Shown: piece after piece, positions 1,973 to 62,254 of the stretch
Layout of the letters: the number at the start of each line of letters is the position of its first letter
Numbering within the stretch: the stretch's first letter is position 1
Origin: Candidatus Oxydemutatoraceae bacterium
GTDB taxonomy: Bacteria; Pseudomonadota; Gammaproteobacteria; Poriferisulfidales; Oxydemutatoraceae
Direction of reading: 5' to 3'
Assembly: GCA_965223735.1 (NCBI GenBank)
Contig: OZ245010.1
Coordinates: 146,273-210,272 of the forward strand
DNA: 64,000 nucleotides
Notes under the pieces: model-generated
Told to the model about the DNA's origin: nothing
Seen by the model: the letters and a program-made list of their open reading frames with translations, nothing else
The model's database searches: none
Made by a program: the position numbers and the translations under genes

Positions 1973-2236
1973 ATGGCCAAGGAACAAGTGCTTCAAGACG
2001 TGTTTCTTAATGCGCTTTGTAAGAACCGGGAGATGGTGAACGTCTATCTCATGAACGGGAGCAGACTGCAAGGAAAGGTGGAGGCCTTTGACCGGTTCGT
2101 CGTCATGGTCAGGATCTCTTCCGTAACGCGCATGATCTATAAGCACGCCATTTCAACGATCGCGCCCCTGCGCGCGATGAGTCTGCCGTTCGGAGACGAT
2201 AAAACGCCGGGCAAGGACCGGCAGGCTTCGTCTTAG
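1973..2236 (+). CDS. hfq: RNA chaperone Hfq
   Basis: Sm1-like [23 protein letters not shown] and Sm2 motif YKHAISTI are present. A GGGAGA RBS (1963-1968) precedes ATG 1973. Confidence 0.9.
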
Positions 2237-2241
2237 CGGCG

Positions 2242-3015: not shown

Positions 3016-3026
3016 GCGGATGACTG

Positions 3027-3052
3027 GCCGCCCGCTCCGGCGGTTTATTTTT
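3027..3052. terminator. Possible bidirectional rho-independent terminator between convergent gloB and glnS
   Basis: A short GC stem (GCCGCC / GGCGG(T)) around a 6-nt loop is followed by TTTATTTTT. The T-run overlaps the last codons of glnS on the other strand. The stem is weak. Confidence 0.35.
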
Positions 3053-4700
3053 GGGAAAGCCTGGCCCAGGTGTCGCGCAACGTGATCGTGCGGTTGAACG
3101 TCGGCCCGTTGCTTTTGTCGTCAACGCAGAAATAACCGAGGCGTTCAAACTGCCAGCGCCTGCCGGGCGTCGCCCGGGCCAGTGAAGGTTCGACGCGGCA
3201 GTCCGTGAGTGTTATCAGCGACGCCGGATTGAGATGTGCAAGCACGTCGTCGGCCGAGGGAATTTTGGTGTTGAACAGCCGGTCGTACAAATGCATTTCG
3301 GCTTTGCCGGCGTGGGCGGCGGACAGCCAGTGGATGGTGCCTCTGACCTTGCGTCCGTCGAGCGTGTTGCCGCCGCGCGTTTGCGGATCATAGGTGCACA
3401 GCAGCCTGACGACGTTGCCCCGTGCGTCTTTTTCAACCTCGCGGCAGGTGATGCAGTAGGCGTAACGCAGGCGCACTTCGCGTCCGGGGGCGAGGCGGAA
3501 GAATTTTTTCGTCGGCGTTTCCATGAAATCGTCGCGTTCAATGTAGATCACGCGCGAGAAAGGCAGTTTTCTTGTGCCCATCGATGGGTTGTCGGGGTGG
3601 TTGGGCGCTTCGAGTTCCTCGTCCGAGTCCTCGGGGTAATTTTCTATGACGAGTTCAAGCGGCTTGAGTACCGCCAGTGCACGCGGTGCGTGTCTGTTCA
3701 GGTAGTCGCGCACGCAGGTCTCCAGCAGATCCATTTCAATCCAGCTGTCTTTTTTAGTCAGGCCGATGCGTTCGCAGAAATCGCGGATCGCGGCCGCCGG
3801 GATGCCGCGTCGGCGCAGGCCCGAGATCGTCGGCATTCTCGGGTCGTCCCAGCCGTCCACGATGCCCGCGTCGGTCAGTTTTTTGAGGTTGCGCTTGCTG
3901 GTGATCGTATGCTTGAGTTGCAGGCGGGCGAACTCGATCTGCTGGGGGTGATGGATTTTCAACTGCTCGAGGATCCAGTCGTACAGGGGGCGGTGGTCCT
4001 CAAACTCCAGCGTGCACAGGGAATGCGTGACCCCTTCAATCGAATCCGAAAGGCACTGCGTGAAGTCGTAAGTCGGGTAGATGCGCCACTCGTCGCCGGT
4101 GCGGTGGTGTGTTATGTGGCGGATGCGGTAGATCACGGGGTCGTGCATGTTGATGTTCGGAGACGCCATATCTATCTTTGCGCGCAGTACGTGTTCACCT
4201 TCCTTATATTTGCCTGCGCGCATTTGTGAGAACAATTCCAGGTTTTCCTGTACGCCGCGTTCGCGGTACGGCGAGTTGACGCCGGGTTCGGTGAGTGTTC
4301 CGCGCTGCTCGCGGATCTGGTCGGGAGACAGGCTGCAAACGTAGGCTTTTTCCAGCTTGATCAGTTCGGTCGCATAGTTGTACAGACGCTCAAAATAATC
4401 CGAGGCGTAGCACAGTCGGTCCCATTCAAAACCGAGCCACGCGACGTCGCGCTTGATCGCCTCGATATACTCGGTGTTTTCTTTCTCGGGGTTGGTGTCG
4501 TCAAAACGCAGGTTGCATCTGCCCCTGAAGTCCCGCGCCAGACCGAAATTCAGGCACACCGCCTTGGCGTGCCCGACATGCAGGTAGCCGTTGGGTTCAG
4601 GCGGGAAGCGGGTCTGGAGTTTTCCGCCGTGTTTCCCTGCTGAGATGTCATCTTCGATGACCTGGCGGATGAAATTGGTCGGTGTCGGCTCGTTGCTCAT
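3045..4700 (-). CDS. glnS: Glutaminyl-tRNA synthetase
   Basis: 551 aa. The class I HIGH region reads [14 protein letters not shown]. The sequence is GlnRS-like throughout ([18 protein letters not shown]), with a KMSKS-like TSKR segment. Confidence 0.95.
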
Positions 4701-5590: not shown

Positions 5591-6357
5591 AACTACTGCT
5601 TGACGTCGGCAACAGCCGCTGCAAATGCGCCGTTTATAGCAACGGCGATCTGCATCATTATCCGCCGGTGGTGGTCAACGCGGATGACTCCGGTGCGTGC
5701 GTGCCCGGGCAGATGGTTGAGCAGGCGGGCGATGCAGTGACCGCGATTGCGGTGGCGAGCGTGCGCGCCGACGAGTTCAACCGCCGCTTGTGCGATGCGT
5801 TGTCCGAACGCTTCAATGTTCAGCCGGTGCCGGCCGTAACCGGGCGCGCCGCCTGCGGTGTGACGACCGCCTACCGCAACGCCGCGAGCCTCGGGGTTGA
5901 CCGCTTTCTCGCGCTGGTCGGCGCATGGCGCAGGGTCGGCGGCGCCTGCGTGGTCGCCGATTGCGGAACGGCGGCGACAATAGACGCGATCAACGACAAC
6001 GGCGTTCACCAGGGCGGGCTGATCATGCCCGGCCTGTGCCTGTTGCGGGACAGTCTGTCCGGAAGTGCCGATCGCCTGCCGGTGCCCGGCGACGCCGGCG
6101 ATCAAGCGGCTGTCGCTTTGTTCGCGCGCGACACCGGCGACGCGATCGCGAGCGGTTGCCGCAGGATGTTCACCGGTGCGGTGATCACCGCGATGCGTGA
6201 GATGCAGGCGCAACTCTCAGGCGGCGCGGCGTTGCTTGCAACGGGTGGCGACGGTGAAGCGTTGCTTGAAGTGGGGGGCGCCGCCGTTCGGTATTACCCC
6301 CACCTTGTGATCGAGGGGCTCGCCGCTTTTTCTGAGCGTGGCACCGATTGCGGCTGA
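5587..6357 (+). CDS. coaX: Type III pantothenate kinase
   Basis: GTG 5587 overlaps the birA stop (GTGA). The N-terminus VKLLLDVGNSRCK is typical of CoaX (DxGNT/S). The gene sits directly after birA. The longer ORF call from 5533 overlaps birA. Confidence 0.8.
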   Translation: MKLLLDVGNSRCKCAVYSNGDLHHYPPVVVNADDSGACVPGQMVEQAGDAVTAIAVASVRADEFNRRLCDALSERFNVQPVPAVTGRAACGVTTAYRNAASLGVDRFLALVGAWRRVGGACVVADCGTAATIDAINDNGVHQGGLIMPGLCLLRDSLSGSADRLPVPGDAGDQAAVALFARDTGDAIASGCRRMFTGAVITAMREMQAQLSGGAALLATGGDGEALLEVGGAAVRYYPHLVIEGLAAFSERGTDCG

Positions 6358-6410
6358 CGGTGCGTTTCTTTAATATGGCTTCTGATATGACCGCGACCGT
6401 GACAGTGTAT

Positions 6411-6482
6411 GCCGGGGTAGCACAATGGTAGTGCAGCGCATTTGTAATGCGAAGGTTGGGGGTTCAAGTCCTCTCTCCGGCA
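6411..6482 (+). tRNA. tRNA-Thr (anticodon UGU)
   Basis: Hand-folded cloverleaf. Acceptor stem is GCCGGGG/CTCCGGC, D arm GCAC-AATGGTA-GTGC, and anticodon stem-loop GCGCA-TTTGTAA-TGCGA. T arm is GGGGG-TTCAAGT-CCTCT and the discriminator is A. The 3' flank reads CCG, so CCA is not fully encoded. Confidence 0.85.
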
Positions 6483-6552
6483 CCGTTCTCCAGCGGTCGT
6501 TGCGGCTGTGACGGCGTGCGGATCTTTTGAAGCGAAGAGAACGGATCCGGTG

Positions 6553-7083
6553 ATGACCCGCGATATAGCCACAACGCAATGCGACACGACGACGCGGTTT
6601 GTCATGGCCTCTCCGCTCGGCGACCTCGAGATCACATTGTGCGACGACGCGCTGGCGGACATTCGTTATCTTCACTCGCGGCTCCGGGGGCGGAAGGGTC
6701 CGGCGGTGCAGCGCAGTCGATCGGCGCGGCGCACGGCGCGCGATGTTGAATACCAGCTCCGCCGTTATTTCGACGACCCGTATTGGCGCTTTGACCTGAA
6801 ACTCATGCCTTGCGGCACGCCGTACCAGCAGCGCGTCTGGAAATATCTGGCGCGCATTCCGGCGGGGCGGCCGATGACCTACGGCGAGGTCGCCGCGCGC
6901 CTCGGTTCTGGGCCGCGCGCGGTCGGCGGCGCCTGCCGCAGCAATCCGGTTCCGATCGTGATTCCCTGCCATCGCGTGATCGCCGCAAGTGCGGTCGGCG
7001 GCTACTGTGGCAATATGCGGGGCAGGATGCTGCACGCCAAACGCTGGCTTTTGCGGCACGAGCATTCACACAAAGAGGAATAA
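6553..7083 (+). CDS. ogt: Methylated-DNA-protein-cysteine methyltransferase
   Basis: Active-site motif IPCHRV is preceded by YGEVAARLG...RAVGGACRSNP. The start is uncertain (GTG 6508 or ATG 6553). Confidence 0.85.
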   Translation: MTRDIATTQCDTTTRFVMASPLGDLEITLCDDALADIRYLHSRLRGRKGPAVQRSRSARRTARDVEYQLRRYFDDPYWRFDLKLMPCGTPYQQRVWKYLARIPAGRPMTYGEVAARLGSGPRAVGGACRSNPVPIVIPCHRVIAASAVGGYCGNMRGRMLHAKRWLLRHEHSHKEE

Positions 7084-7086
7084 ACA

Positions 7087-7290
7087 ATGAGCGAAGAGAC
7101 ACGGCAGGACATTCGCACCTTGCTGAAGCGTTTCGGGATCAAGGCCGACGAGGGCATCACCGCACACCTCGAGAAAACCGGGGCGGGGCCCGATCTCAGG
7201 TTGCGCCTGACGCTTGAAGAGGTCGGTGATCACGGCGTGGATGCAGCGGCGTTGCCGACGCTGACGCTTGAAGGCATGGTCAGGCGCTGA
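7087..7290 (+). CDS. Small hypothetical protein (67 aa)
   Basis: AGAGGA RBS lies upstream of ATG 7087, 3 nt after the ogt stop. The sequence is plausible and hydrophilic. I recognise no motif. Confidence 0.45.
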   Translation: MSEETRQDIRTLLKRFGIKADEGITAHLEKTGAGPDLRLRLTLEEVGDHGVDAAALPTLTLEGMVRR

Positions 7291-7474
7291 CCATCTGCCC
7301 AGCAGGGTGGCGCAAGCCTGTCCGCCGGAGCGGCCGGCCGTTGCGGCGGGCGTCGGCCGCCCAGGGGAATGTGCGGGCATTCGCGTCAGGGCGGATCAAT
7401 GCGGAAAAACCGCCGCGTATCACTGATGGGGGGTGTGGCTTGTCATCAAAGTGATATGAAAGGCAAGGATTTTT

Positions 7475-34477: not shown

Positions 34478-35237
34478 TGCGGCAAGCAGGATGTGGCGTA
34501 CCGGCGCGCCGGTGTTTATCGGTCTCTCGCGCGTCCTCGAGCGGTTGCTTTTCGCCGCCGCCGTGCTGGCACTGGCCGCGAGCGCGTTCGTTTATCACCG
34601 GCATTGGATGCCGGTGCTGTTTCCGGCGATCAGCCATATTCAATTGCAAGGGCAGTTTGTTCACATCGACCGTTTTGAAGTCGAGTGGCTGGTGCGAAGC
34701 AATATCAACGGTCACTTCTTTGACGTCAATCTGCATACTCTCAAACGCGCGCTCGAGGCCATGCCGTGGGTCAGGCGAGTGCGCGTCGAGCGGGTGTGGC
34801 CGCAGACTCTGCTGGTCGAACTCGAAGAGCACGACGTCGCGGCGCGCTGGGGAGTCGATGCGCTGCTCAGCACCGAAGGCGTGGTGTTTGCCCCGGATCG
34901 GATCAGCGCCGCCGGCCTTGTGATGCTGCATGCGTCGGCGGGCATGGAATTGGCGGTGCTCGAGAAGTACCGCAGGGCGCGTGAGTTATTGGCTGCCGTC
35001 AACGGTGCGGCGATCAGGGCGCTCGGCGAAGACCGTCATGGTTCATGGCGCCTGATACTCGACAACGGCATTGCCGTAAAACTCGGCGATACGCATTGGG
35101 AAAGCCGGCTCAGGCGCTTTGTCGGCGCCTGGCGCAACGGTCTGTACGCGCAGGCCACGCGCATTCAATGCATTGACGCCAGGTATCCGAACGGTCTGGC
35201 CGTGGTCTGGAAAGACCGGCGGGGGGATTGCGAATGA
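34470..35237 (+). CDS. ftsQ: Cell division protein FtsQ
   Basis: Bitopic protein with a POTRA-like segment (…WVRRVRVERVWPQTLLVELEE…). It is positioned between ddl and ftsA, and its ATG overlaps the ddl end. Confidence 0.8.
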   Translation: MNSAASRMWRTGAPVFIGLSRVLERLLFAAAVLALAASAFVYHRHWMPVLFPAISHIQLQGQFVHIDRFEVEWLVRSNINGHFFDVNLHTLKRALEAMPWVRRVRVERVWPQTLLVELEEHDVAARWGVDALLSTEGVVFAPDRISAAGLVMLHASAGMELAVLEKYRRARELLAAVNGAAIRALGEDRHGSWRLILDNGIAVKLGDTHWESRLRRFVGAWRNGLYAQATRIQCIDARYPNGLAVVWKDRRGDCE

Positions 35238-36481
35238 AGTCAATCGGGATGAAGGCCGAGCGGCAGATACTGACCGCGCTCGACATCGGCACCAGCAAGA
35301 CCGCCGCAATCGTCGCCGCAACCGCTGAAGACGACGGCGTCGAGGTGCTGAGCGTCGGCACCTGCCCGTCCGGCGGCCTGAAGAAAGGCGTGGTGGTTGA
35401 TATCGAGGAAACGGTGAATTCAATCCGCTGCGCGGTCGAGGAGGTCGAGCTGACCGCGGAAGTGAACGTTGACAAGGTCTATGTCAGCATCTCCGGCAGC
35501 CATATCAAGAGTTTCAACTGCGAGGGGATGGCGCCGATCAAAGACAACGAGGTCAGCGAACTCGATATAGACCGCGCGATAGAAACGGCGCAGGCGATGC
35601 AGTTGCCCGCCGATCAGCAGGTGTTGCACGTGTTGCCGCGGGACTTCTCGATCGACGGGCAGAGCGGCGTCAAGAACCCGATCGGGATGTCGGGCTATCG
35701 CCTGCACGCGAACGTGCACATGGTCACCGGCGAAAAGCATCCGATCAACAATATCATTAAATGCGTCAGGCGCTGCAATCTCGAGATCGCGGACTTCGTC
35801 CTCGAGCAAATTGCATCGGGTCGGGCGGTGCTCGACGCGGATGAAAGCGAACTCGGCGTCTGCCTGCTCGACATCGGCGGCGGCACTACCGATATCGCGG
35901 TGTTCAGCAAGGGCACGGTCACGCATACCGCGGTGATACCGATCGCCGGCGACCACGTGACCAATGATATTGCAATCACGTTGCGCACGCCGGCCAAAAA
36001 CGCCGAGGAAATCAAATTGAAATACGGTTGTGCGCTCAAGCAGTTTGCGGGTGAGGAGGAAACGATTGAAGTTCCGAGCGTCGCCGACAGGCCTCCGACG
36101 CGCTTGCGGCGGCGTTCGCTGGCCGAGGTGATACAGCCGCGTTACGAGGAACTGTTCAACCTGGTGCGCAGGGAACTCAATGAGAAAGCGATTGAAGACC
36201 TGATCGTGGCGGGGTTTGTGCTCACCGGCGGCAGCTCTAAGATGGAAGGCGTTCTCGATCTCGCTGAAAACATATTCAACGCGCCGGTGCGTATCGGCAA
36301 GCCGCAGACCGGCGTTACCGGTCTGGCGGAGATCATCAGCAACCCGATCTACGCAACGGGCATCGGCCTTTTGCACTCCGCGGCCGAAATGTCGGCCGCT
36401 TCCCGACGCGGCAAACTTCCCGGGGTCGGCGTCGGTCGCATCTGGGGCAAATTCAAAAACTGGTTTCAAAGAAATTTCTAA
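35234..36481 (+). CDS. ftsA: Cell division protein FtsA
   Basis: Actin-fold motifs LDIGTSK and LDIGGGTTDIAVF are present, along with a C-terminal amphipathic helix (WGKFKNWFQRNF). ATGA overlap with ftsQ. Confidence 0.92.
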   Translation: MKSIGMKAERQILTALDIGTSKTAAIVAATAEDDGVEVLSVGTCPSGGLKKGVVVDIEETVNSIRCAVEEVELTAEVNVDKVYVSISGSHIKSFNCEGMAPIKDNEVSELDIDRAIETAQAMQLPADQQVLHVLPRDFSIDGQSGVKNPIGMSGYRLHANVHMVTGEKHPINNIIKCVRRCNLEIADFVLEQIASGRAVLDADESELGVCLLDIGGGTTDIAVFSKGTVTHTAVIPIAGDHVTNDIAITLRTPAKNAEEIKLKYGCALKQFAGEEETIEVPSVADRPPTRLRRRSLAEVIQPRYEELFNLVRRELNEKAIEDLIVAGFVLTGGSSKMEGVLDLAENIFNAPVRIGKPQTGVTGLAEIISNPIYATGIGLLHSAAEMSAASRRGKLPGVGVGRIWGKFKNWFQRNF

Positions 36482-36500: not shown

Positions 36501-37715
36501 ATGTTTACAATTATTGACAAATCCACGCACAGCGCTGTAATTAAAGTCATCGGTGTCGGTGGCGGCGGCGGCAACGCGCTTGAGCACATGATTGATAAGG
36601 GTATCGAGGGGGTCGAGTTTATTGCGACCAATACCGACGCCCAGGCTTTGAGCAGGAGCAAAGCGCCTTCGACTTTGCAGCTGGGAGAAAGCGTCACTCA
36701 CGGGCTCGGCGCCGGCGCTGATCCGGCACTTGGGCGCGAGGCTGCGATCGAGGCGCGTGAAACCCTCCAGGCGACACTCGAGGGAGCCGACATGGTGTTC
36801 ATTGCCGCGGGCATGGGCGGCGGCACCGGCACCGGCGCGGCGCCGGTGATTGCCGAGATTGCGAGCGACGTCGGCAGCCTGACCGTGGCGGTGGTGACCA
36901 AACCGTTCCCGTTCGAGCGCGAGCGGCGTATGCAGGTCGCGGAAACCGGTATTGAGGAGTTGAACAAACGTGTCGATTCGTTGATCACGATCCCCAACGA
37001 GAAGTTGATTACGGTGCTGGGCAAGGAGCGGCCGATGATCGAGGCGTTCAAGGAAGCCGACGACGTGCTGTTCAGCGCGGTGCAGGGCATCGCCGAGCTG
37101 ATTACCCGTGAAGGGCTGGTCAATCTTGACTTTGCCGACGTCAAAACCGTGATGCTGAAAACCGGCATGGCGATGATGGGCACCGGTTGCGCGGAAGGTG
37201 AGAACCGCGCGTACGAGGCTGCGCACGCGGCGATCAACAACCCTCTGCTCGAGGACGTTGACCTGACCAATGCGTGCGGCGTCCTGGTGAACATCATGGC
37301 CGGTAACAGCCTGACGATGGGCGAGTTTGAGGAGATTGGTCTGTGCATGTCGCAATTGGCGGCGCCCGATGCCAGCGTCGTTATCGGCACGGTGATTGAC
37401 GAGAACATGGGGGATGCGCTCAGAGTGACGCTGGTCGCCACCGGGCTTGGGGGCGCCGCCGGCAGCGTCAGCGATGGCGCCGCGGCGGCTGCAGAGACAA
37501 TCGCGATCCTGCCGTCGCCCGAGCTGGCGTCCGGGGTATCCGCATTGACGCCCGAGCCGGCGCCGGTTCAGACGCCGGACTACGTCGCTTACGACGCACC
37601 GGCGGTGAGGCGCCGGGCGAACGGCATCGGAGACGATCAGTGCGACGGCGACGATCAGGAGGAATACGGCAAGTATCTGGACATCCCGGCATTTCTTCGC
37701 CATCAGGTGGATTGA
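36501..37715 (+). CDS. ftsZ: Cell division protein FtsZ
   Basis: Tubulin signature GGGTGTGAAPVIA and VIGVGGGGGNA are present, with the conserved C-terminal peptide DIPAFLR. An AAAGGAG RBS precedes the start. Confidence 0.97.
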   Translation: MFTIIDKSTHSAVIKVIGVGGGGGNALEHMIDKGIEGVEFIATNTDAQALSRSKAPSTLQLGESVTHGLGAGADPALGREAAIEARETLQATLEGADMVFIAAGMGGGTGTGAAPVIAEIASDVGSLTVAVVTKPFPFERERRMQVAETGIEELNKRVDSLITIPNEKLITVLGKERPMIEAFKEADDVLFSAVQGIAELITREGLVNLDFADVKTVMLKTGMAMMGTGCAEGENRAYEAAHAAINNPLLEDVDLTNACGVLVNIMAGNSLTMGEFEEIGLCMSQLAAPDASVVIGTVIDENMGDALRVTLVATGLGGAAGSVSDGAAAAAETIAILPSPELASGVSALTPEPAPVQTPDYVAYDAPAVRRRANGIGDDQCDGDDQEEYGKYLDIPAFLRHQVD

Positions 37716-38035
37716 TCACGCGGCACGGGGGTAAGTGACTGGATTCCGGTTCAGGGATCAAAGCGCCGGGAGATGTCCCTACCTGGTTCCGGACGTTTTG
37801 ACTTTGAGCGCGGTAAACGTTGTTTGCGGATAACCGGTAACGGCTGAACGGCGTGCCGACCCGCCGGTCGGCCGTCGTGTGTCCCCGTTTGGAGGCAGCT
37901 ACCCGGCTCAGACCGAAGGTGAGTGTTCCCGGCTGAAAACTTTTTTGCCGCGATGGCGCCGGTGGTTGTGCCGGGCGTCCGGCGGCGGCTGTTCCGAACG
38001 CCGCCGATGAGCGCCGTGTGCGGTTACCGGCGCTG

Positions 38036-39514
38036 CTACCGCCCGGTAAATTCCCTGTCCGCCCACGCTGCGGTCGCTCCCGGTGAAATTTCCTGTCGGG
38101 AACGCCGGTCCATAACGACCAGGATCAGGCACGACCAGCATAAGGCATACGGCGCAAATAGGAATCTGCCCACTCTTACTATATTGTCGTTCGGCACCAG
38201 AAGTTGTAGCGTGATAAAAGCTATCAACCCAGCGACAAACAAGACATCGTAAAAAATACCGGAATGCCCTTTCAACGCTTTGGCAATGGCAAATGACGTA
38301 GCCCCGGCAAATGCCAATGCCGTTAAAACACTCAACACTTTCGCTATTGTGTAATGTTTTCCCAATCCGATGGTAAAGAAGCTGTAGAAAAAATCAAGCA
38401 CACGTAAGACCAAAACATACACCCCTTTCAAAATGCTGAGTAGTTCCACGGGGGAGGTCAAGAAGCCAGCACCTACTCTTGAAGGAAGTCCTACTATTGG
38501 CCCTAATAGCAGACTTTCCAATGGCTGGCGTTTTTCTTTCAGATATTCCGCGTACAACGGATCATGCAATATCCACTCGTAAGCGATCATCTTGGTCAAG
38601 ATCCCCAGCGTATAGCAGGCATAAAACCCGATGAAGTAGAACAAAACACACGACAGCGCCTGCTTTGTTCTTTCGGACGTGCGCAGGTGGGGGCCATAAC
38701 CAAAATACGTTATGACCGCGATCAGCGGCATGATGAGAACCGTGTGGCCGTCAAACAGCCACAGGTAATTTGACGCCATGCCCGCGATAAAGCAAAAGAC
38801 GTTAAGCACCCGCGGCGATGCGTGTTTAGCTATCAACACAGTCAGTATGACCGCCGATAGGACCGACCACAGATAGTTCAAGCCGGTGACTATGCTTAAG
38901 TATCGGATGCCTGAGAAGAAAAAACCGAAGACGATCAACGGAGAAAGTATCAGAAACGCCCTCGGGCTGAGTTGCAACAGAAGGATTGCCAGCAGCAAAT
39001 AAGCAAAATAAACGGCGGTTTTTATGAATTCCCGGATTTCAAAGACCGAAAAATAGCGTAGTGCAATCGCATAGACCGCTTTGGTTCCCCACCAATATTG
39101 GGATTTGATCCATAACAGACGTGGTTCGGCGTCTTCCACCGTCATTTTTTTCAGTTTCTGGCAGGGGTCAATGCGGTCAAGGGATTTCGGGGGATGCGCT
39201 ATCTTTATCATTACGGCATCAACAATCAGGTTCTTCGCCTCATTCCGTGCTCCGCCCAATACAGTCTGCGATATTTCGCAGTCATCCCATGGTGCTTTGC
39301 CTCTCAGGTTTTCTATCGGGGAGAACTCCCTGGACAGAGGTATGAATTCAGTCGAATCCGGCAGGTTGCCTTCCTTGTAAGCCGTGTTGAACCGCTGTTT
39401 TGCCAGATCATAAGGGATCTGATTGCCCAGGTAATGCAGAAAACAACACAGCACAATACCCGACACGGCAACTCCGGCATACGTGATAAACGAATTTAAC
39501 AGGGAGCTTCGCAT
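38036..39514 (-). CDS. Polytopic membrane protein, uncharacterised (candidate GtrC/GT-C-like glycosyltransferase)
   Basis: 492 aa. One N-terminal TM is followed by a ~125-aa hydrophilic domain and at least 10 hydrophobic segments. G+C is markedly lower than the surroundings. It lies directly downstream of a GT2 gene on the same strand. The last ~20 codons run into high-GC flanking DNA. Confidence 0.6.
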   Translation of the reverse strand: MRSSLLNSFITYAGVAVSGIVLCCFLHYLGNQIPYDLAKQRFNTAYKEGNLPDSTEFIPLSREFSPIENLRGKAPWDDCEISQTVLGGARNEAKNLIVDAVMIKIAHPPKSLDRIDPCQKLKKMTVEDAEPRLLWIKSQYWWGTKAVYAIALRYFSVFEIREFIKTAVYFAYLLLAILLLQLSPRAFLILSPLIVFGFFFSGIRYLSIVTGLNYLWSVLSAVILTVLIAKHASPRVLNVFCFIAGMASNYLWLFDGHTVLIMPLIAVITYFGYGPHLRTSERTKQALSCVLFYFIGFYACYTLGILTKMIAYEWILHDPLYAEYLKEKRQPLESLLLGPIVGLPSRVGAGFLTSPVELLSILKGVYVLVLRVLDFFYSFFTIGLGKHYTIAKVLSVLTALAFAGATSFAIAKALKGHSGIFYDVLFVAGLIAFITLQLLVPNDNIVRVGRFLFAPYALCWSCLILVVMDRRSRQEISPGATAAWADREFTGR

Positions 39515-39580
39515 TTTCGTTAGCTCTATGCCGCTATACAGGAGTCAGTTTGACGCGGCAGATGGATCAGGAAAAACGCA

Positions 39581-40744
39581 TCAGCCTTTGACTGGTTTCT
39601 GTGTGGAAAGTAAAGTCAGTAGAAAACCGGAAAAAATAATCTGCAGACCGGTGATCAATAACGTAATGGAAGGGATCAAGACACGCGACCTCATTTCATG
39701 ATCGATTTCCACCATTTGCGCCCATATAAAAACACTCCACGCGCTTCCCGCTCCTCCGAGTAGAAGCAAAGTAAAGCCCAGTGAAAGAATCGTTACAAAA
39801 ACACGGTGCTTTTGAAATTTTTCCAGCCATTGAGTTTCATCGGTCAAGCCGATGTTTTCATAAAAAATTTTTGCCAGTAATGAAAAAATAATGATCTGCA
39901 ATCCGCAAGTAAAACTCCCTGATCCGAGCATCAGAGTGTAAAGTCCAAACCTGTTTTCTGAAACGTCCATTAGAGCGATCGTCATTGCCAGGATGCCCGC
40001 GAGGGACAAAATGCAACCCGGGTATAAAAACAACCAGCGGGGAGAGAGTGTCAAAAGCAGGATCAGGTGACGCCACCCGTCCCTCCAGGTTCTCAAGTGC
40101 GAAGAGCGGCTGGGGTCAATTTCAGGGTGCTGCATTACCGGCACCTCGGTGATACGCATGTTTCTCTGGATAGCCTTGACCACCATTTCACTTGCAAGCT
40201 CCATTCCCGGGCACTGCAACGAAAGCGCGCGCACGCTTTTTGCGCTGAACGCGCGTAGTCCGCAATGAAAATCGCCCACCGGAGAGGAAAAAAACAGTTT
40301 TCCGATGCCAGACAGCAGCGGGTTGCCGATGTAACGATGCAAAAATGGCGTCGGGGGGCCTGCAAACGAGGGTGTGAACCGATTGCCGATCACAAAATCA
40401 TAACCGTTTTGCAGTTTCTCCCAAAATGGTTCCAGCGAGCTGAGATCATGCGCTCCGTCAGCGTCTCCCATTATGATGAATTGTCCCCGTGCCATTTCGA
40501 TCCCCGCGATGATGGCTCTACCGTAACCTCTGTCCTCGACGTGAATGACGCGCCCCCCCGCTTCCTTTGCCAATCCGGCTGAGCAGTCGTCACTGTTGTT
40601 GTCGGCTATCAGAATTTCCCCGTGAATTTTATTTCTCTCCAGGAACCGTTGTCCCCGGCGAACACAGTCGGCGATCCCTCCCTGCTCGTTCAGGCAGGGG
40701 ATCAGGATCGTCAGCTCAGGGGATTCAGGAGAAGGCATATTCAT
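39581..40744 (-). CDS. GT2-family polyprenyl-phosphate glycosyltransferase-like protein (GtrB/ArnC/DPM1-like) with 4 C-terminal TM segments
   Basis: Motifs LTILIPCLNE, ILIADNNSDD and IIMGDADGAHD (DxD) are present, with four hydrophobic helices after residue ~270. The start is ATG 40744 or 40738. The ORF call from 40867 adds an implausible N-terminus. Confidence 0.8.
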   Translation of the reverse strand: MNMPSPESPELTILIPCLNEQGGIADCVRRGQRFLERNKIHGEILIADNNSDDCSAGLAKEAGGRVIHVEDRGYGRAIIAGIEMARGQFIIMGDADGAHDLSSLEPFWEKLQNGYDFVIGNRFTPSFAGPPTPFLHRYIGNPLLSGIGKLFFSSPVGDFHCGLRAFSAKSVRALSLQCPGMELASEMVVKAIQRNMRITEVPVMQHPEIDPSRSSHLRTWRDGWRHLILLLTLSPRWLFLYPGCILSLAGILAMTIALMDVSENRFGLYTLMLGSGSFTCGLQIIIFSLLAKIFYENIGLTDETQWLEKFQKHRVFVTILSLGFTLLLLGGAGSAWSVFIWAQMVEIDHEMRSRVLIPSITLLITGLQIIFSGFLLTLLSTQKPVKG

Positions 40745-41106
40745 TCCATTATGAATATAACGTGAATAAACCGGTTGGGGCCTTCCGGATGGTGTCTTTG
40801 TGCCGGGCATATTACTGTTTAATGCTGGGGAGGCGCAACTTTTTTGTACCCTCCTCGCACGCCGCACGCTTATTGAGGTTTAAGGGTAACTGTTTGATTT
40901 TAAGTAACTTTGAGCCGGATGACGACCCAGGGACGCCCTGAAGGGAAGGTGCCGGGGGCAGTTGCGAAGGGAGCGGTCGGGGTCGGAACTTTGCCAAAAT
41001 GCTCCGGTATTGTTAGAATTACGGCCATATCACTTGATCGCAATCAAATTTTCCAGCTGTACAGACTGGTTACCCGGTTGTATGGAAACGATCTTAGGTA
41101 AAAGTC

Positions 41107-42024
41107 TTGATAAAACAAAGGACTCTGAAGAATTCAATCCGTGCAACCGGCGTCGGATTGCATACCGGGAAAAAAGTATATCTCACGTTGCGCCCGGCGG
41201 TTTCCAACACCGGCGTGGTTTTTCGTCGCGTTGATCTTGACGAACCGGTTGATATTCCGGCCCGCGCGGAAAATGTGGTGGATACGATGCTATCCACGAC
41301 GCTCGGCAAAAACGGCGTGCGTGTTTCCACGGTCGAGCATTTGCTGTCGGCGGTTGCGGGCCTCGGCATCGACAATTTGTACGTTGACGTGAGTGCCGAG
41401 GAAGTGCCGATCATGGACGGTAGCGCGGGTCCCTTCGTATTCCTGTTACAGTCTGCAAGTGTTGAAGAGCAGGATGCCCCGAAAAAATTCATCCGCATCA
41501 AAAAGGCCGTCGAGGTCGTTGACGGCGATAAGTGGGCGCGTTTCGTGCCCTCCAAGAGCTTCAAGGTCAGTTTTTCGATTGATTTTGACCATCCGATCTT
41601 CCGCAACCGCCCGCAGATCGTTTCTATCGACTTTTCAAAGACTTCTTTTATCAAGGAAGTCAGTCGCGCGCGTACTTTCGGTTTTCAGAAAGAGTATGAA
41701 AAGCTGCTCGCCGCAAACCTTGCGCTCGGCGGCAGCCTGAACAATGCGATCGTGGTCGATGACCACCGCATTCTGAACGAAGACGGCCTGCGCTATGAAG
41801 ACGAATTTGTCAAGCACAAGGTCCTTGACGTGATCGGAGACATCTATTTGCTCGGCAACAGCCTGATCGGCGCGTTTGAAGGGCATAAGTCGGGACACTG
41901 CCTGAATAATCGATTGCTCAGGAAGCTTCTCAAAGAGACGGCGGCCTGGGAGGAGATCATCTTTGATGGAAGCGAGGAACCCCCTCCGCTCGTTTTCACG
42001 TCGGTCGCTAAAAGCCGTTATTGA
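41107..42024 (+). CDS. lpxC: UDP-3-O-acyl-N-acetylglucosamine deacetylase
   Basis: N-terminus [31 protein letters not shown] is nearly identical to the E. coli LpxC N-terminus. Start codon is TTG. Confidence 0.95.
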
Positions 42025-42070
42025 AGGTGCGCGGGCGCGGCGCTGTTCGCTGCGATGGACGAGGTCACGG

Positions 42071-42376
42071 CTATTTTTCGGCGCCGGGGACCGGAAATCG
42101 AGACGCGCGCACGGTCGCTTTCCTGAATCGGCGTTGCAACTCCGCCCCGAATTCCTCATTCAGTTGCGTCAATATTTCATGCTGCTGGTAATTGATCGGC
42201 GTCGTGAATACGGCGTCGTCGGTAATTAAAGCAACCGATGTCGCGTCGTATCCCCCAACCCAGCAATGTTCTGCGAGGTATTGCGGCAGCCGGCTGCGTG
42301 CGCTGGCGGTCATGCGTTCGAGCAATTGCGCGTGTTGCAACAGGTTTTTGTCAGCGAATGAGTGCAGTTTTTTCAT
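42071..42376 (-). CDS. DUF721/DciA-like small protein
   Basis: 101 aa, on the opposite strand between lpxC and the M23 peptidase/secA. This is the position of the DUF721 gene in Pseudomonas-type synteny as I recall it. The weak sequence impression only allows a tentative call. Confidence 0.5.
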   Translation of the reverse strand: MKKLHSFADKNLLQHAQLLERMTASARSRLPQYLAEHCWVGGYDATSVALITDDAVFTTPINYQQHEILTQLNEEFGAELQRRFRKATVRASRFPVPGAEK

Positions 42377-57777: not shown

Positions 57778-58230
57778 TCAATAATCCCGGAACACGTAGT
57801 ATTTTGTCAGGACGAAGTTGATCGAAAAGGTCAGGCAGATGGTGAGTCCTCTTGCGAGCAGCAGGCCGTCCGATGCGCCGAACACCCCGAAGTTCATTTG
57901 GTCGAACGCGAAAATGTCCACCATCACGAACATCGCGATCAGGCTTATCACGAGCGCGCCGAGGCTGGAGAAGAATTTCCGCCATAACGCCGTGACCGGT
58001 GAGTGTCCGGTCAGGTGAAATACGAATTTAAGGGCGAGAAAGAAGTTTATCGTCGTTCCCACGATAAAAGACGCCGTCGTCGCGGCCAGGTAGTTGATTT
58101 CCAAGCGATCCGTCAGAAAATTAAAAACCGCGAGGTCGCAAACGGCGGCCATTCCGCCGACCACCCCATATTGAAAGAATTGCCGGACCCAGCCCCACGC
58201 AGGCGGTTGTGCGGTTTCATCCGGAACCAT
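57778..58230 (-). CDS. GtrA-family membrane protein (polyprenyl-phosphate-sugar translocation family)
   Basis: Four TM segments. RQFFQYGVVGGMAAVCDLAVFNFL and the C-terminal INFVLTKYYVF(R) are typical of GtrA-like proteins. The likely start is ATG 58230. The ORF call to 58377 would overlap lpxB. Confidence 0.7.
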   Translation of the reverse strand: MVPDETAQPPAWGWVRQFFQYGVVGGMAAVCDLAVFNFLTDRLEINYLAATTASFIVGTTINFFLALKFVFHLTGHSPVTALWRKFFSSLGALVISLIAMFVMVDIFAFDQMNFGVFGASDGLLLARGLTICLTFSINFVLTKYYVFRDY

Positions 58231-58360
58231 GGTCCATATCTCCCGTGCGGGTTGAGGCGATCGGTTTTCGGGGAAGCCGGTGTCTGACCGGCCGGGTTGC
58301 AACTGATTAGTATAATTTGTCCGGAAAGAAACCGCTAAGCGTACGTTCAGCGCGACAGTT

Positions 58361-59515
58361 CTATCGGATCGTCGCACCGGTGCCGACCATCCCGCGCACC
58401 AGGTCGGCGAGTTTTTCCACGGCGCCGCCGTCGCCGAGCGCCCGCTTCACCCGATCGAGGTCGCGCCGGATCGTCTGTACGCGCTGCTTGTCTTCGAGCA
58501 TCGCCAGCGCCTGTACGCGGATCGCGTCGGCATTGGCGTCGCCTTGGATCAACTCCGGCGCGACTGTTTTGCCGGCGACGATGTTGACCAGTCCGATACT
58601 CGGCGTTGTCACCAGACGTTTCAGCAGGAAATAGGTTGGCCATGACGTCTTGTAAATAATAATCATCGGTGTGCCGCACAGGGCGAGTTGCAGCGTGGCA
58701 GTGCCGGAGGCGGTGATCGCGAGATCGCTGCCGCGCATCGCCGCTTCGGGGTTTTCGCGGATTAACTCGCAATTGAGATGATGTTTGCGCAGTTGCCGTT
58801 TGACAATCTCCGTCGGAATGCCGGGTGCCGGCAGCAGTGAAAACCGCACCGAAGGCGCGTGCGCCGCAATCTCGGCGGCAGCGTGGCACAGCACCGGCAA
58901 CAGTCGGCGCACCTCGACAACGCGGCTGCCGGGCATCAGCAGCACTTTTTTACCGCCCTCGCCGTTGTTCCTGTCGCGGGGAGGCGGGAGACCGTGCATC
59001 TGATCCACCAGCGGGTGCCCGACGTACCGCACCGGCACACCGGCGTCACGGTAGATTTTTTCCTCGAACGGGAACACCACCGCCATCATGTCGATGCGGC
59101 GGGCAATCGCCCTGATGCGTCCCGCCCTCCATGCCCATACCTGCGGGCTGATATAAAAGAGTGTTTTTACGCCGACGCAGCGCGCGACCTTCGCGAGCCT
59201 GAGGTTGAAGTCGGGATAATCGACCAGCACCAGCAGGTCGGGGATTTCTTCTCTCAGCGCCCGCACCAGGCGGCGGTAGGCGCGTCTGAGTGCCGGGTAG
59301 TGCGCGACCACTTCAAACAGCCCGACCAGGGACAGTTCACTGGCGTCCACCAGTCGGCGCAATCCCGCGTGCTTCATTTCGGACAAGCCCATGCCGAAGC
59401 AGTCGAAACCGTCGGCGTTTTCGCCCGAGTGCAGCGCCCTGATCAAGTCCGCCGCGTGCATGTCGCCCGACGGCTCGCCCGCGACGACCATGATCTTGTA
59501 AGTCCGGCGGTGCAC
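58361..59515 (-). CDS. lpxB: Lipid-A-disaccharide synthase
   Basis: The VVAGEPSGDMHAADLIRAL N-terminus and LpxB-like sequence throughout support the call. The start may be 59515 or 59491. Confidence 0.9.
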   Translation of the reverse strand: MHRRTYKIMVVAGEPSGDMHAADLIRALHSGENADGFDCFGMGLSEMKHAGLRRLVDASELSLVGLFEVVAHYPALRRAYRRLVRALREEIPDLLVLVDYPDFNLRLAKVARCVGVKTLFYISPQVWAWRAGRIRAIARRIDMMAVVFPFEEKIYRDAGVPVRYVGHPLVDQMHGLPPPRDRNNGEGGKKVLLMPGSRVVEVRRLLPVLCHAAAEIAAHAPSVRFSLLPAPGIPTEIVKRQLRKHHLNCELIRENPEAAMRGSDLAITASGTATLQLALCGTPMIIIYKTSWPTYFLLKRLVTTPSIGLVNIVAGKTVAPELIQGDANADAIRVQALAMLEDKQRVQTIRRDLDRVKRALGDGGAVEKLADLVRGMVGTGATIR

Positions 59516-59523
59516 AAGCGAGG

Positions 59524-60636
59524 TCAGTCCAGCGCCGTGATTGCGGCGGCGACGCGCCCGACGTCCGGCTCGGTCAGTTCAGGGAACATCGGCAGCGACA
59601 GGCATTCGCGTGCTATGCGTGCGGCCTGGTCGCAATTGACGTTGCGGCTGACGCCGCGCAACGAGGGTTGCCCGGTCAACGGCAACGGGTAATAGATGCG
59701 GTTGCCTATCCGCGCCTTGTCGAGCGCGGCGCTGATCGCGCCACGCCGCTGTCCGCACAAGACCGTGTATTGATTGAAGACGTGCTCGCATCCCTCGGCG
59801 CAGGCCGGTGTCCGCAGATGCCCTTTCAGGGCGTTGGTGTAAAGCGTCGCGAGTCGTCGCCGCTTGCGGTTGAAAGTTTTCACGTGCCTGAGTTTTACGC
59901 GCAGGATGGCGGCCTGGATCTCGTCGAGACGGCTGTTGTAGCCGATGATCTCGTGGTCGGGGCCGCCGGGACTGCCGTGGTTGCGCAGCAGCCTGACGCG
60001 CTCGGCGAGGTCATGGTCGTCGGTGGTGATCATGCCGCCGTCGCCACAACCGCCGAGGTTCTTGGTCGGGAAAAAACTGTGGCAACCCGCGAGCGACATC
60101 GCGCCGGCGTGACGACCGTTGCGGCGCGCGCCGAATGCCTGTGCGCAATCCTCGATCAGCGCGAGCCCGTGCCGGGCGGCGAGCGCCGACAATGCGTCCA
60201 CGTCGGCAGGGTGGCCGTGTAGGTGCACTGCAATGATCGCGCGGGTTTTTAGCGACAGCGCGCGCTCGGCGCTCGCCGGATCAAGCGTCAAAGTGACGGG
60301 GTCGATGTCCGCGAGCACCGGCACAGCGCCGACGTACAGTATGGCTTCCGCGGTCGCGATGAAAGAGAACGCGCTGGTGATCACCTCGTCTCCCGCGCCG
60401 ACGGAGGCCGCGCGCAGCGCCAAATGCAACGAGTCGGTGCCTGAAGCACAGGCGACGGCTTCGCGGGTGCCGACGAATGAGGCGACCTCGCGCTCGAGCG
60501 TTGCCACTTCTTCGCCGAGTATGAAACGGCCGCTTGCAAACACCCGTGTGATCGCCGCGTCAATTTCCCCCGACAGCGCGCGGTGCTGTTCGCTCAGGTC
60601 AAAAACGGGGATCGGCGGTGCGGGCGAGACGGTCAT
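59524..60636 (-). CDS. DegT/DnrJ/EryC1-family PLP aminotransferase, GnnB-like
   Basis: From ATG 60636 the N-terminus reads MTVSPAPPIPVFDLSEQHRAL...ASGRFILGEEV. The sequence is a sugar aminotransferase type, located between a Gfo/Idh/MocA gene and lpxB. The upstream part of the ORF call is an artefact. Confidence 0.8.
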   Translation of the reverse strand: MTVSPAPPIPVFDLSEQHRALSGEIDAAITRVFASGRFILGEEVATLEREVASFVGTREAVACASGTDSLHLALRAASVGAGDEVITSAFSFIATAEAILYVGAVPVLADIDPVTLTLDPASAERALSLKTRAIIAVHLHGHPADVDALSALAARHGLALIEDCAQAFGARRNGRHAGAMSLAGCHSFFPTKNLGGCGDGGMITTDDHDLAERVRLLRNHGSPGGPDHEIIGYNSRLDEIQAAILRVKLRHVKTFNRKRRRLATLYTNALKGHLRTPACAEGCEHVFNQYTVLCGQRRGAISAALDKARIGNRIYYPLPLTGQPSLRGVSRNVNCDQAARIARECLSLPMFPELTEPDVGRVAAAITALD

Positions 60637-60640
60637 GTCG

Positions 60641-61558
60641 TCAGTGTTTGAGCGTAGCCGATACCCGGATCGCTGCGTCGAGCGCGCGGCGCCCTTCGCG
60701 TCCGCCGACCAGTGGTTGTCGCGTGTCGCGTATGCACGCCAGGAAATGTTCGATTTCGACGAGCAGCGCGTCGGCTTCGGGAAACGATCGCTCGTCGCAT
60801 TTGATGTTTTGCTCGTCGTCTTGGTGACAGGCCGTGCAGCGGTTATTGTACAGGTCAATTGAAAAGTAGCAGTCTTTCTTGAACAGGCGCAATTTGCGCT
60901 CGGTTTTGCGGCTGATGCGGCTCGTCGTGATGTTGGCGGTGCAGCCGTTGGCAAACTCGATCCGGGTGTTGGCGATATCGGTGCCGTGCGACAGGATTTC
61001 GGCGCCGTTTGCCCTGACGTCGGTGATCTCGGACGGCACCAGATGCAGGATGATGTCGAGATCGTGAATCATCAGGTCGAGAATGACGCAGGTGTCTTTA
61101 TTGCGCCTGCCGAGCGGCATCAGCCGCACGCTCTCGACGAACGCCGGGTCGAACGGCAGGTCGCCGAGCGAGAGCAGCGCGGGGTTGAAGCGTTCGATGT
61201 GCCCGATCTGCAGCAGCCTGTGGTTGCGCTCGGCGACTTCAATCAGCTCATCGGCCTGCTCGAGCGAGACCGCCATCGGTTTTTCAATCAGCACGTGCGC
61301 GCCGTTTTCCAGAAAGTCGCGCGCGATCTGGTAGTGTGTCGCGGTCGGCGTTGCGATGCTGACCGCATCGAGTTCTCCCAGTAGTTTCCGGTAGTCGGTG
61401 ACGGGTGCGATAGAATATTTGCCGGCAACCTCACGGCAAACCTTTTCCTCGATATCAACGACCGCAGATAATTCACAATCCGCTATGTGTGCATATTTTT
61501 CAGCGTGGAACTTGCCGAGGTGGCCTGCTCCGATGACGCCGCAATTGAGAGTTGACAT
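60641..61558 (-). CDS. Gfo/Idh/MocA-family NAD-dependent oxidoreductase, GnnA-like
   Basis: From ATG 61558 the Rossmann N-terminus reads MSTLNCGVIGAGHLGKFHAEKY. The stop lies 4 nt upstream of the aminotransferase start. Confidence 0.75.
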   Translation of the reverse strand: MSTLNCGVIGAGHLGKFHAEKYAHIADCELSAVVDIEEKVCREVAGKYSIAPVTDYRKLLGELDAVSIATPTATHYQIARDFLENGAHVLIEKPMAVSLEQADELIEVAERNHRLLQIGHIERFNPALLSLGDLPFDPAFVESVRLMPLGRRNKDTCVILDLMIHDLDIILHLVPSEITDVRANGAEILSHGTDIANTRIEFANGCTANITTSRISRKTERKLRLFKKDCYFSIDLYNNRCTACHQDDEQNIKCDERSFPEADALLVEIEHFLACIRDTRQPLVGGREGRRALDAAIRVSATLKH

Positions 61559-61618
61559 TGGTTTTTCTGGAGCCGCGGTCAATCGCCGCGATGCGGTTTC
61601 TGTCGCCATGGCCGGACT

Positions 61619-62254
61619 ATGATAGCGAAAAAGTGTTTTTCCAGAGATGAGGCGTTGCCGGACTTCGGCGCCGCATTGATCGCCGGTGTCGATGAAGCCG
61701 GGCGCGGCCCGCTCGCCGGTCCGGTCATCGCGTCGGCGGTGATCCTGCCGACGCCGCACCGGCGGCGCAGATACCATGATTCAAAGCAACTCGGCGCCGG
61801 GCGGCGTACGCGCCTGAGCCGCGCGGTCAGGTGTGAAGCGGTGGCCTGGGCGGTGGGGCGCGCCGAGGTCGAGGAGATAGACGAGTTGAACATCGCCGAA
61901 GCCAGCCTGTTGGCGATGGCGCGGGCGTTGGCAGCGCTCGCGGTGACGCCCGATCTGGCGCTGGTCGATGGTAACCGTGTGCCCTACCTTGACCTGCCCT
62001 GTTATGCGGTGGTCGGCGGCGATGACCGTATTGAAGTCATCAGCGCCGCGTCCATAGTCGCCAAGGTTGAAAGGGACGAGGAGATGCTGCAATTGCACGA
62101 GCGTTATCCGATTTATAATTTTGCCTCGCACAAGGGGTATCCGACCAAAGAACACATTCAGAATTTGGACCGATATGGCGTTTGCAGTATTCACAGAAAA
62201 TCATATCGTCCGGTCAGAGAGAGGCTTGCCGCCGGTCGCAACCCCGATGCCTGA
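61619..62254 (+). CDS. rnhB: Ribonuclease HII
   Basis: The GVDEAGRGPLAGPV motif is present, and the position upstream of dnaE fits. Confidence 0.9.
   Translation: MIAKKCFSRDEALPDFGAALIAGVDEAGRGPLAGPVIASAVILPTPHRRRRYHDSKQLGAGRRTRLSRAVRCEAVAWAVGRAEVEEIDELNIAEASLLAMARALAALAVTPDLALVDGNRVPYLDLPCYAVVGGDDRIEVISAASIVAKVERDEEMLQLHERYPIYNFASHKGYPTKEHIQNLDRYGVCSIHRKSYRPVRERLAAGRNPDA

Follow-up and report, generated by a model that had tools for sequence, protein, structure and literature searches.

Two genes that are close neighbours elsewhere in the Gammaproteobacteria, ftsZ and lpxC, stand about 3.4 kb apart in Candidatus Oxydemutatoraceae bacterium (GenBank assembly GCA_965223735.1), with two genes on the opposite strand between them. 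Where did this pair come from, and what might its products do? The locus was studied in a window of 64,000 nt (contig OZ245010.1, positions 146,273 to 210,272 of the forward strand), whose own numbering is used throughout. The first gene of the pair encodes a family 2 glycosyltransferase (here GT2) and the second a membrane protein of 492 aa (MP492). The reading preferred here, at a probability of about 0.6, is that they form an acquired two-gene module, a donor synthase together with a periplasmic transferase. The features concerned are given below, with the G+C content (GC) and the G+C content at third codon positions (GC3) where these help to place them.

36501-37715, plus strand: ftsZ, the last gene of the division and cell wall (dcw) cluster and left flank of the insertion, an open reading frame (ORF) of 404 aa (GC 0.626, GC3 0.770).
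37716-38035: left spacer, of host-like GC (0.644) in the GC profile, with GC-rich hairpins.
38036-39514, minus strand: MP492, a 492-aa membrane protein of a rare unnamed family with 10 predicted transmembrane (TM) helices (from model, topology and family alignment).
39515-39580: spacer of 66 bp between the cassette genes (GC 0.485).
39581-40744, minus strand: GT2, a predicted polyprenyl-phosphate sugar synthase of 387 aa (PF00535, PF26629, PDB relatives).
40745-41106: divergent intergenic region of 363 bp (GC 0.49) with promoter-like sites, which are consensus matches only.
41107-42024, plus strand: lpxC, right flank of the insertion, apparently native by phylogeny and AT-shifted (PF03331, E=2.5e-110).
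57778-58230, minus strand: a small membrane protein of the GtrA family (PF04138, E=1.9e-16).

The last genes of the plus-strand dcw cluster are ftsA (35228-36481) and ftsZ. From the end of ftsZ (37715) to the start of lpxC (41107) there are 3,391 bp, as a first-pass annotation of this DNA had estimated, and their content is the two minus-strand ORFs that it described, one of 492 aa at 38036-39514 with the predicted TM helices of a polytopic protein, the other, for GT2, listed at 39581-40867. The premise that lpxC normally lies close behind ftsZ was examined in 80 gammaproteobacterial FtsZ loci retrieved with the window FtsZ (53-59% identity), and it holds well: in all 76 loci with both genes they are on the same strand and separated by 64-651 bp (median 202), never by more than 1 kb, and neither cassette gene has a homologue in any of the 76. 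Mis-assembly is disfavoured because a second assembly (L084; Logan, run ERR13602196) has a matching gene order, with an M23 peptidase gene and lpxC, then divergent GT2 and MP492 genes, then ftsZ. The read index places the cassette in a single sample only, and L084 is thus no independent biological replicate. The host is very long-branched: the closest FtsZ among some 186,000 species-representative genomes shares 59% identity with its own, and its terminal branch in the FtsA tree is 2.03 substitutions/site.

The composition of the pair is foreign to the window. The MP492 gene has a GC of 0.489 and a GC3 of 0.578, and the GT2 gene 0.506 and 0.566, close to the 47-48% that had been counted by hand in the first pass. 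Their codon index, patterned on the codon adaptation index, is 0.49-0.52 (0.52 for MP492). For comparison, 25 further genes in the window range over 0.57-0.67 in GC, 0.71-0.80 in GC3 and 0.64-0.73 in codon index; both GC and GC3 of the cassette are 0.10-0.20 lower than those of all neighbouring genes. The native membrane-protein genes mraY and ftsW, at a GC3 of 0.74-0.78, are unlike the cassette in this respect. Along the sequence, the dcw genes are at a GC of 0.60-0.66 and the stretch 38200-40200 at 0.43-0.51; no other kilobase in the window has so low a GC as the cassette, which is also the top tetranucleotide outlier (0.49 against a median of 0.18 and a standard deviation of 0.06, or about five standard deviations). 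The left break is sharp and lies near 38100, within the 3' end of the MP492 gene; in a 50-bp profile, GC is 0.72-0.76 at 37950-38049 and down to 0.44 by 38200.

An equivalent pair, with the same gene order and strand, is found at three other loci and at differing chromosomal sites: between ruvX/pyrR-like genes and dinB (L001), in a polysaccharide locus with a Wzm/Wzt-type ABC transporter (L002), and beside rplU-rpmA-obg (L086). The two genes probably form a single transcription unit. Three observations support horizontal acquisition of a two-gene module and its insertion into the ftsZ-lpxC spacer, much as the first-pass annotation had proposed: the pair deviates in composition, its position is unique, and elsewhere it is found at scattered sites. 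Members of the MP492 family come almost all from a few ENA assemblies; scans with the family alignment found no match in viral contigs and none in JGI metagenome contigs.

Judged by its sequence, the GT2 enzyme belongs to the GtrB/ArnC/DPMS class of polyprenyl-phosphate sugar synthases, and its activity would be the transfer of a sugar onto polyprenyl phosphate. The ORF is listed from a GTG at 40867; the likeliest real start is the ATG at 40744, which gives 387 aa (385 aa in the gene call of L084). The GT-A domain matches PF00535 over residues 12-172 (E=8.5e-20, 71.8 bits against a cutoff of 23.3). The DAD motif noticed in the first pass is D94-A95-D96, within 'IIMGDADGAHD', and is kept in the orthologues of L001 and L002; the four C-terminal TM segments noticed with it appear as four hydropathy peaks, near residues 242, 275, 314 and 359. 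PF26629 (GT2_TM_C) is annotated for the GT2 gene of L084, which is identical, and for the orthologues in L001, L002 and L086; it was taken from precomputed annotations, the Pfam copy used for the scan being without this model. All seven matches to PDB sequences are to ArnC (4.5e-11), DPMS (5mlz, 1.8e-9) or GtrB (5ekp/5eke, 4e-4). None of the best NCBIfam matches reaches its cutoff; these are AglJ (1e-38), PpgS, dolichyl-phosphate hexose transferase and ArnC. Orthology to ArnC, AglJ or PpgS, which would fix the sugar, was considered and rejected, the equivalog scores being far under their cutoffs (AglJ 133 bits against 325, PpgS 69 against 370, ArnC 43.9 against 529).

For the second gene the first-pass annotation had looked to the PMT_2, GtrC or GT-C families. 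The proposed profile searches were run, and here the expectation was not borne out: MP492 matches no family in Pfam or NCBIfam at E<=0.01, 23 members of its family, scanned against Pfam, gave even at E<=10 no family of glycosyltransferases, polymerases, ligases or transporters, and the family profile has no match among PDB sequences at E<=10. Relatives are rare. There are 27 in a set of 5.8 billion proteins, an exhaustive profile search gave about 90 core-bearing clusters (50% identity) among its top 150, and 92 of the 168 sequences examined bear the core; no source gives a name to any member. An AlphaFold2 model built from the family alignment is good (mean predicted local distance difference test score, pLDDT, 82.8; predicted template modelling score, pTM, 0.84). 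Foldseek found nothing credible for it in the PDB (best E=0.3, TM-score <0.2, probability <=0.2, with G-protein-coupled receptor and major facilitator superfamily (MFS) noise) and no match in BFVD, the collection in which phage GtrC-type proteins would be expected. The control P0105, which has a Pfam-significant PMT_2 core and a C-terminal repeat shared with long members of the MP492 family (see below), gave a poorer model by the same procedure (pTM 0.60), and this model retrieves STT3/OST, PglB, EmbB and AftA at a probability of 1.00. When the core alignment of 89 family members was compared by hhalign with four clusters of repeat-bearing GT-C-like cores, probabilities were 0.6-4.8%, against 80% and 91% for the recognition of two of the other clusters by the PMT_2 cluster. 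Membership of MP492 in GT-C, whether of the PMT_2/ArnT, PglB/STT3, Emb/Aft or GtrC type, was therefore rejected, the sequence, profile-profile and fold tests all being without match while the control was recognised. The annotation had also held that its reading would fail if the polytopic partner belonged to a family other than glycosyltransferases; what was found lies between, with a match to no known family of either kind.

For MP492, hydropathy, model helices and the alignment agree on 10 predicted TM helices with both termini cytoplasmic; residues 320-388 are variable and contain no conserved TM segment. The orientation was examined by the positive-inside rule over the 89 members, and the density of Lys and Arg is 0.21-0.36 in the short loops predicted to be cytoplasmic and 0.00-0.18 in those predicted to be periplasmic. 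The first periplasmic loop, after TM1, is about 130 aa long and carries two near-invariant Cys residues, which likely form a disulfide. The near-invariant positions are H27, N31, R41, C79, C118, Y140, W141, K145, S201, S248, Y250, D255, H257, D443 and R450, and all of them are at the predicted periplasmic face or in this first loop. Because the window MP492 keeps 17 of the 18 family-conserved residues (the exception is Q for R139), it is probably functional.

Gene neighborhoods were tallied for the window and ten other loci with family members. Eight of these 11 have in the cluster a polyprenyl-phosphate-type GT2, either fused to GT2_TM_C or split into GT2 and DUF2304, or a DUF2304 partner. 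The fused form lies directly upstream of the family member in the window, L001, L002 and L086; the split form is within its operon in L087 and L089; in L003 a polyprenyl-phosphate-type GT2 is 6 kb upstream; and in L090 a DUF2304 gene is directly upstream, with a GT2 nearby. The short GT2s of L087, L089 and L090 have PpgS as their best NCBIfam match. DUF2304 is the family of GacJ and Rv3632, which stimulate the undecaprenyl-phosphate N-acetylhexosamine synthases GacI and PpgS, and the products of both synthases serve GT-C transferases; that of GacI, undecaprenyl-phosphate N-acetylglucosamine (GlcNAc), is consumed by the GT-C enzyme GacL (bioRxiv 10.1101/180810). The window GT2 is 68% and 56% identical to those beside the family members of L001 and L002, against 46% and 38% for the membrane proteins themselves. 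A conserved synthase next to a variable membrane protein is the GtrB/GtrC pattern, and may be read as co-evolution.

Several loci have head-to-tail arrays of two to at least five paralogues: three in L001 (6016-11397), two in L085 (3967-7464), at least four in L087 (7001-16115), three in L088 (6791-11398) and two in L091 (4561-9214). In L087, a GT2, a DUF2304 protein and a methyltransferase precede five copies of about 700 aa, some of which are separated by 59-aa ORFs. Such arrays fit acceptor-specific transferases and not a flippase.

Of 61 longer members, 54 continue past the core with one extra hydrophobic helix and then one to six copies of a repeat of about 110 aa; the window MP492 is the short form, without repeats. 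In the control model P0105 the repeat folds as beta-sandwiches, resembling by Foldseek arrays of fibronectin type III (FnIII) or immunoglobulin (Ig) domains, and it is also found C-terminal to PMT_2/PMT GT-C cores that pass the Pfam cutoff. Because the same repeats sit on both, the novel core appears to fill the architectural slot of a GT-C core. The repeat, which belongs to no Pfam family, has conserved Cys residues and the motifs FDVY..L.Y.K..C, FFLH..P, GFDNLDF and LPDYPI..I.TGQ, and is located in the C-terminal regions of P0009, P0011, P0014 and P0105 (residues 507-984 of the last). It is joined to at least five unrelated polytopic cores, PMT_2 GT-C enzymes among them. The repeat is very common: the profile search returned 2,470 cluster representatives at E<=1e-3, core-only members being included with repeat-bearing ones.

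A larger operon recurs in the long-form branch (L089, 4007-9566; similar in L003, 579-9323, and L087, 1187-9115). Besides the MP492 family member it comprises a GT2, a GacJ-like DUF2304 protein, a polysaccharide-deacetylase-like protein, a FemAB-like Acetyltransf_6 protein and a class I methyltransferase, and an LPG_synthase_TM protein is often nearby; the set suggests that a lipid-linked amino sugar is deacetylated and re-modified before transfer. L003 also encodes two Pfam-poor polytopic proteins with weak PMT_2 matches (2180-3676, 498 aa, E=0.76; 5735-7303, 522 aa, E=0.005), so that classical-like GT-C candidates and a member of the MP492 family share one cluster.

Among the closest known systems are the GtrA/GtrB/GtrC periplasmic glucosylation of O-antigen, encoded by phages and chromosomes of Shigella and Salmonella, and related three-component systems (PMC11127046). 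As there, a GT2 with C-terminal TM segments lies directly upstream of a faster-evolving polytopic protein in a compact, mobile and compositionally foreign module, and the pair of L002 is in a cluster of the ABC-transporter O-polysaccharide type. A GT-C transferase is however a hallmark of such three-component systems (Kelly et al. 2024, PMC11127046), whereas the candidate transferase here is not recognisably GT-C, and the module has neither a flippase gene nor a phage context. The short GT2 with DUF2304 of L087, L089 and L090 resembles GacI/GacJ/GacK/GacL, which adds the GlcNAc side chain of the group A carbohydrate in Streptococcus pyogenes, and PpgS/Rv3632/Rv3779 of Mycobacterium tuberculosis, with MP492 family members in the position of GacL or Rv3779; these two are GT-C enzymes, though, the window GT2 is fused rather than split, and the hosts here are Gram-negative. 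Likeness to ArnC/ArnT, for 4-amino-4-deoxy-L-arabinose (L-Ara4N), and LgmA/LgmB/LgmC, for glucosamine (GlcN), consists in the ArnC match of GT2 (E=4.5e-11), the adjacent lipid A gene and the deacetylase-like gene of some loci. Differences are the ArnC score far below its cutoff, the lack of ArnT/PMT_2 similarity in MP492 and of ArnA/B/D/E/F nearby, and an lpxC adjacency that is not conserved. The repeat-bearing PMT_2-type GT-C proteins (P0105, P0136, P0066) share with the long members their order of polytopic core, extra TM helix and two to six periplasmic repeats, but the cores are unrelated by profile-profile comparison (<5%) and by Foldseek, and the window MP492 has no repeats. On balance the cassette would work most like the lipid-linked-sugar glycosylation of the Gtr and Gac types. 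MP492 is not filed here as GT-C, which makes it less likely that the cassette is a Gtr system proper, though not that it works in the manner of one.

In the preferred reading, GT2, anchored by its four TM helices, would load the sugar of a nucleotide sugar onto polyprenyl (undecaprenyl) phosphate at the cytoplasmic face of the membrane. The lipid-linked sugar would then be flipped to the periplasmic face, by the native GtrA-like protein, by another flippase or with none dedicated to it. Finally MP492, as its context, topology and the domain architecture of its family suggest, would transfer the sugar on the periplasmic side onto an acceptor of the envelope, possibly the O-antigen or core of lipopolysaccharide (LPS), a glycan of capsule type, or a protein of the periplasm or outer membrane. 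Residues that may take part are H27, N31, D36, R41, Y140/W141, K145, S201, D255/H257, D443 and R450, along with the Cys-paired first loop. MP492 would thus fill the role held in known systems by the GT-C enzymes GtrC, ArnT and GacL. Of the architecture first proposed for the pair, the synthase stands, and a donor synthase with a membrane transferase is still the best reading of the conserved pairing; the transferase as a recognisable GT-C enzyme does not stand.

To our knowledge, all characterised extracytoplasmic decoration of bacterial envelope glycans or proteins from polyprenyl-phosphate sugars uses a GT-C transferase (GtrC, ArnT, GacL, YfhO, Emb/Aft, PMTs). That the MP492 family is a new, non-GT-C structural class of periplasmic glycosyltransferases dependent on such donors can be put forward tentatively, the odds being somewhat against it; such a class may have evolved or been recruited in parallel to GT-C, sharing with it the donor synthase and the acceptor-binding beta-sandwich repeats. 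If MP492 is the transferase, it would define a family of glycosyltransferases not described before, and its fold might be new as well. In that case glyco-engineering would gain a compact tool of two genes, and the Pfam-less genes seen in polysaccharide loci would have an explanation. The locus also illustrates naturally how a small island that lacks mobility genes can sit inside a highly conserved Gram-negative gene junction, here with lpxC no longer coupled to the dcw cluster. Its place beside lpxC is most likely incidental; lpxC presumably now relies on a promoter within the divergent spacer that came with the insertion.

Several points weigh against an acquired synthase-transferase module. 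MP492 has no detectable similarity to any glycosyltransferase, the term transferase being drawn from context and architecture. Only 72 of 89 family members have the acidic residue that is the candidate for catalysis (D/E36), and in three of the 11 loci (L085, L088, L091) there is no GT2 within 6-7 kb. No RNA run holding the cassette sequence was found in the read-run search. As to acquisition, the marks of genomic islands are present in part, with deviant composition and broken synteny; integrase, tRNA target and direct repeats are absent at the borders. No integrase ORF was found in 34-44 kb, and at the cassette borders, where there is no tRNA, the only direct or inverted repeats are short and at chance level (the first-pass annotation had likewise seen neither flanking direct repeats nor an integrase). 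The nearest FtsZ among the loci compared is distant, at 59% identity. Finally, lpxC and the dciA-like ORF beyond it are AT-shifted too, and the region may be locally AT-biased.

The alternative that fares best, though unlikely, is that the cassette is a module for lipid A (or inner core), similar to ArnC/ArnT or LgmA/LgmB with a non-canonical transferase and completed by the GtrA-like flippase. Lipid A had also been named among the possible targets in the first pass; the one basis for it is the adjacency to lpxC. The cassette does lie directly upstream of lpxC, with a divergent promoter region common to both; a GtrA-family gene is present in the lpxB operon; ArnC is among the closest solved relatives of GT2; and in some family loci a polysaccharide-deacetylase-like gene follows the GT2, as in ArnD/LgmC-type pathways. 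The window cassette has no deacetylase, however, MP492 has no ArnT/PMT_2 similarity, and the orthologous pairs lie away from lipid A genes, in L001 and L086 at the unrelated sites given above and once in the Wzm/Wzt locus. There is no dedicated flippase (GtrA, Wzx, MATE or SMR) between ftsZ and lpxC. The gene at 57778-58230 next to lpxB, which the first-pass annotation had offered as the third component, was correctly identified as GtrA-like, but that role is not borne out: the gene is 17 kb from the cassette and in another operon. Because of its host-like GC3 (0.709) and its last place in a string of oxidoreductase, aminotransferase, lpxB and gtrA genes, it is native, part of that other operon, and nothing ties it to the cassette. 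On the minus strand at 57778-61777, this string consists of a GFO/IDH/MocA oxidoreductase gene (60641-61777), a DegT aminotransferase gene (59524-60954), lpxB (58361-59515) and gtrA. The oxidoreductase-aminotransferase pair resembles GnnA/GnnB, which make UDP-GlcNAc3N for lipid A with 2,3-diamino-glucose; as far as we know, a GtrA-type protein closing such an lpx operon is unusual.

It is improbable that MP492 is instead a flippase or transporter of the polyprenyl-phosphate sugar, or an accessory factor of the synthase, with the transferase encoded elsewhere. The role of flippase is vacant, in that no flippase family matched the small ORFs beside family members and the loci read showed no recognisable gene of the GtrA, Wzx, MATE or SMR kind, and a protein with 10 TM helices and no glycosyltransferase signature could fill it. 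Two to five paralogues behind a single GT2 would be hard to explain on this basis, however, as would a large periplasmic loop of disulfide type and conserved residues on the periplasmic face. The C-terminal periplasmic beta-sandwich repeats common to GT-C enzymes suggest acceptor binding, and the only transporter folds retrieved were among the MFS and receptor noise.

Equally improbable is a polymerase, ligase or non-sugar (phospho- or acyl-) transferase at the periplasmic face, possibly similar to Wzy or WaaL, with GT2 in a shared pathway and not as the source of its donor. The most conserved residues of MP492 are His, Arg, Lys and aromatic (H27, R41, K145, R450, Y140, W141) with no invariant acid, a set which we take to recall WaaL and Wzy, and several family loci have methyltransferase, carbamoyltransferase or FemAB-like acyltransferase genes. 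Yet neither a Wzx gene nor one for an initiating phosphoglycosyltransferase lies with the pair in the window, L001 or L086, there is no Wzy_C or O-antigen-ligase match in Pfam at E<=10 and no WaaL or RodA among the Foldseek matches listed, and a monosaccharide donor is what the tight two-gene unit with a polyprenyl-monophosphate sugar synthase would suggest. As for the notion that the genes are not recent, but an old lineage-specific part of the region whose low GC comes from local AT bias and membrane-protein composition, it is hardly likely: the borders without mobility genes, tRNA or direct repeats, the AT-shifted lpxC and dciA-like ORF next door and the distance of the closest relatives compared (59% FtsZ identity) would allow it, but the GC3 (0.57-0.58) and codon index of the cassette are far outside those of other genes, mraY and ftsW included, the left composition break is sharp, and the pair lies at differing loci in other genomes.

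The AT-shift of lpxC is marked. Its GC is 0.529 and its GC3 0.644, and its GC3 deficit relative to ftsZ and ftsA is -0.128, beyond the minimum of -0.098 among 75 comparator loci. Arrival of lpxC along with the cassette was considered as a cause and rejected at the available resolution, LpxC and FtsA placing the window in the same clade. In the LpxC tree the window protein falls in the same assemblage as FtsA does (Chromatiales, basal gammaproteobacteria and Xanthomonadales), and because of this agreement lpxC is treated as native, on phylogenetic grounds. The divergent spacer has a promoter-like site for lpxC at 40991-41019 on the plus strand (10 of 12 positions, with the TG of an extended -10) and one for the cassette at 40925-40897 on the minus strand, both as consensus matches only. 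The dciA-like ORF (42071-42376; PF05258; GC 0.549, GC3 0.647) is convergent to lpxC. Together lpxC and this ORF (41107-42376) are intermediate between cassette and host in composition, and the AT-shift extends about 1.3 kb past the cassette.

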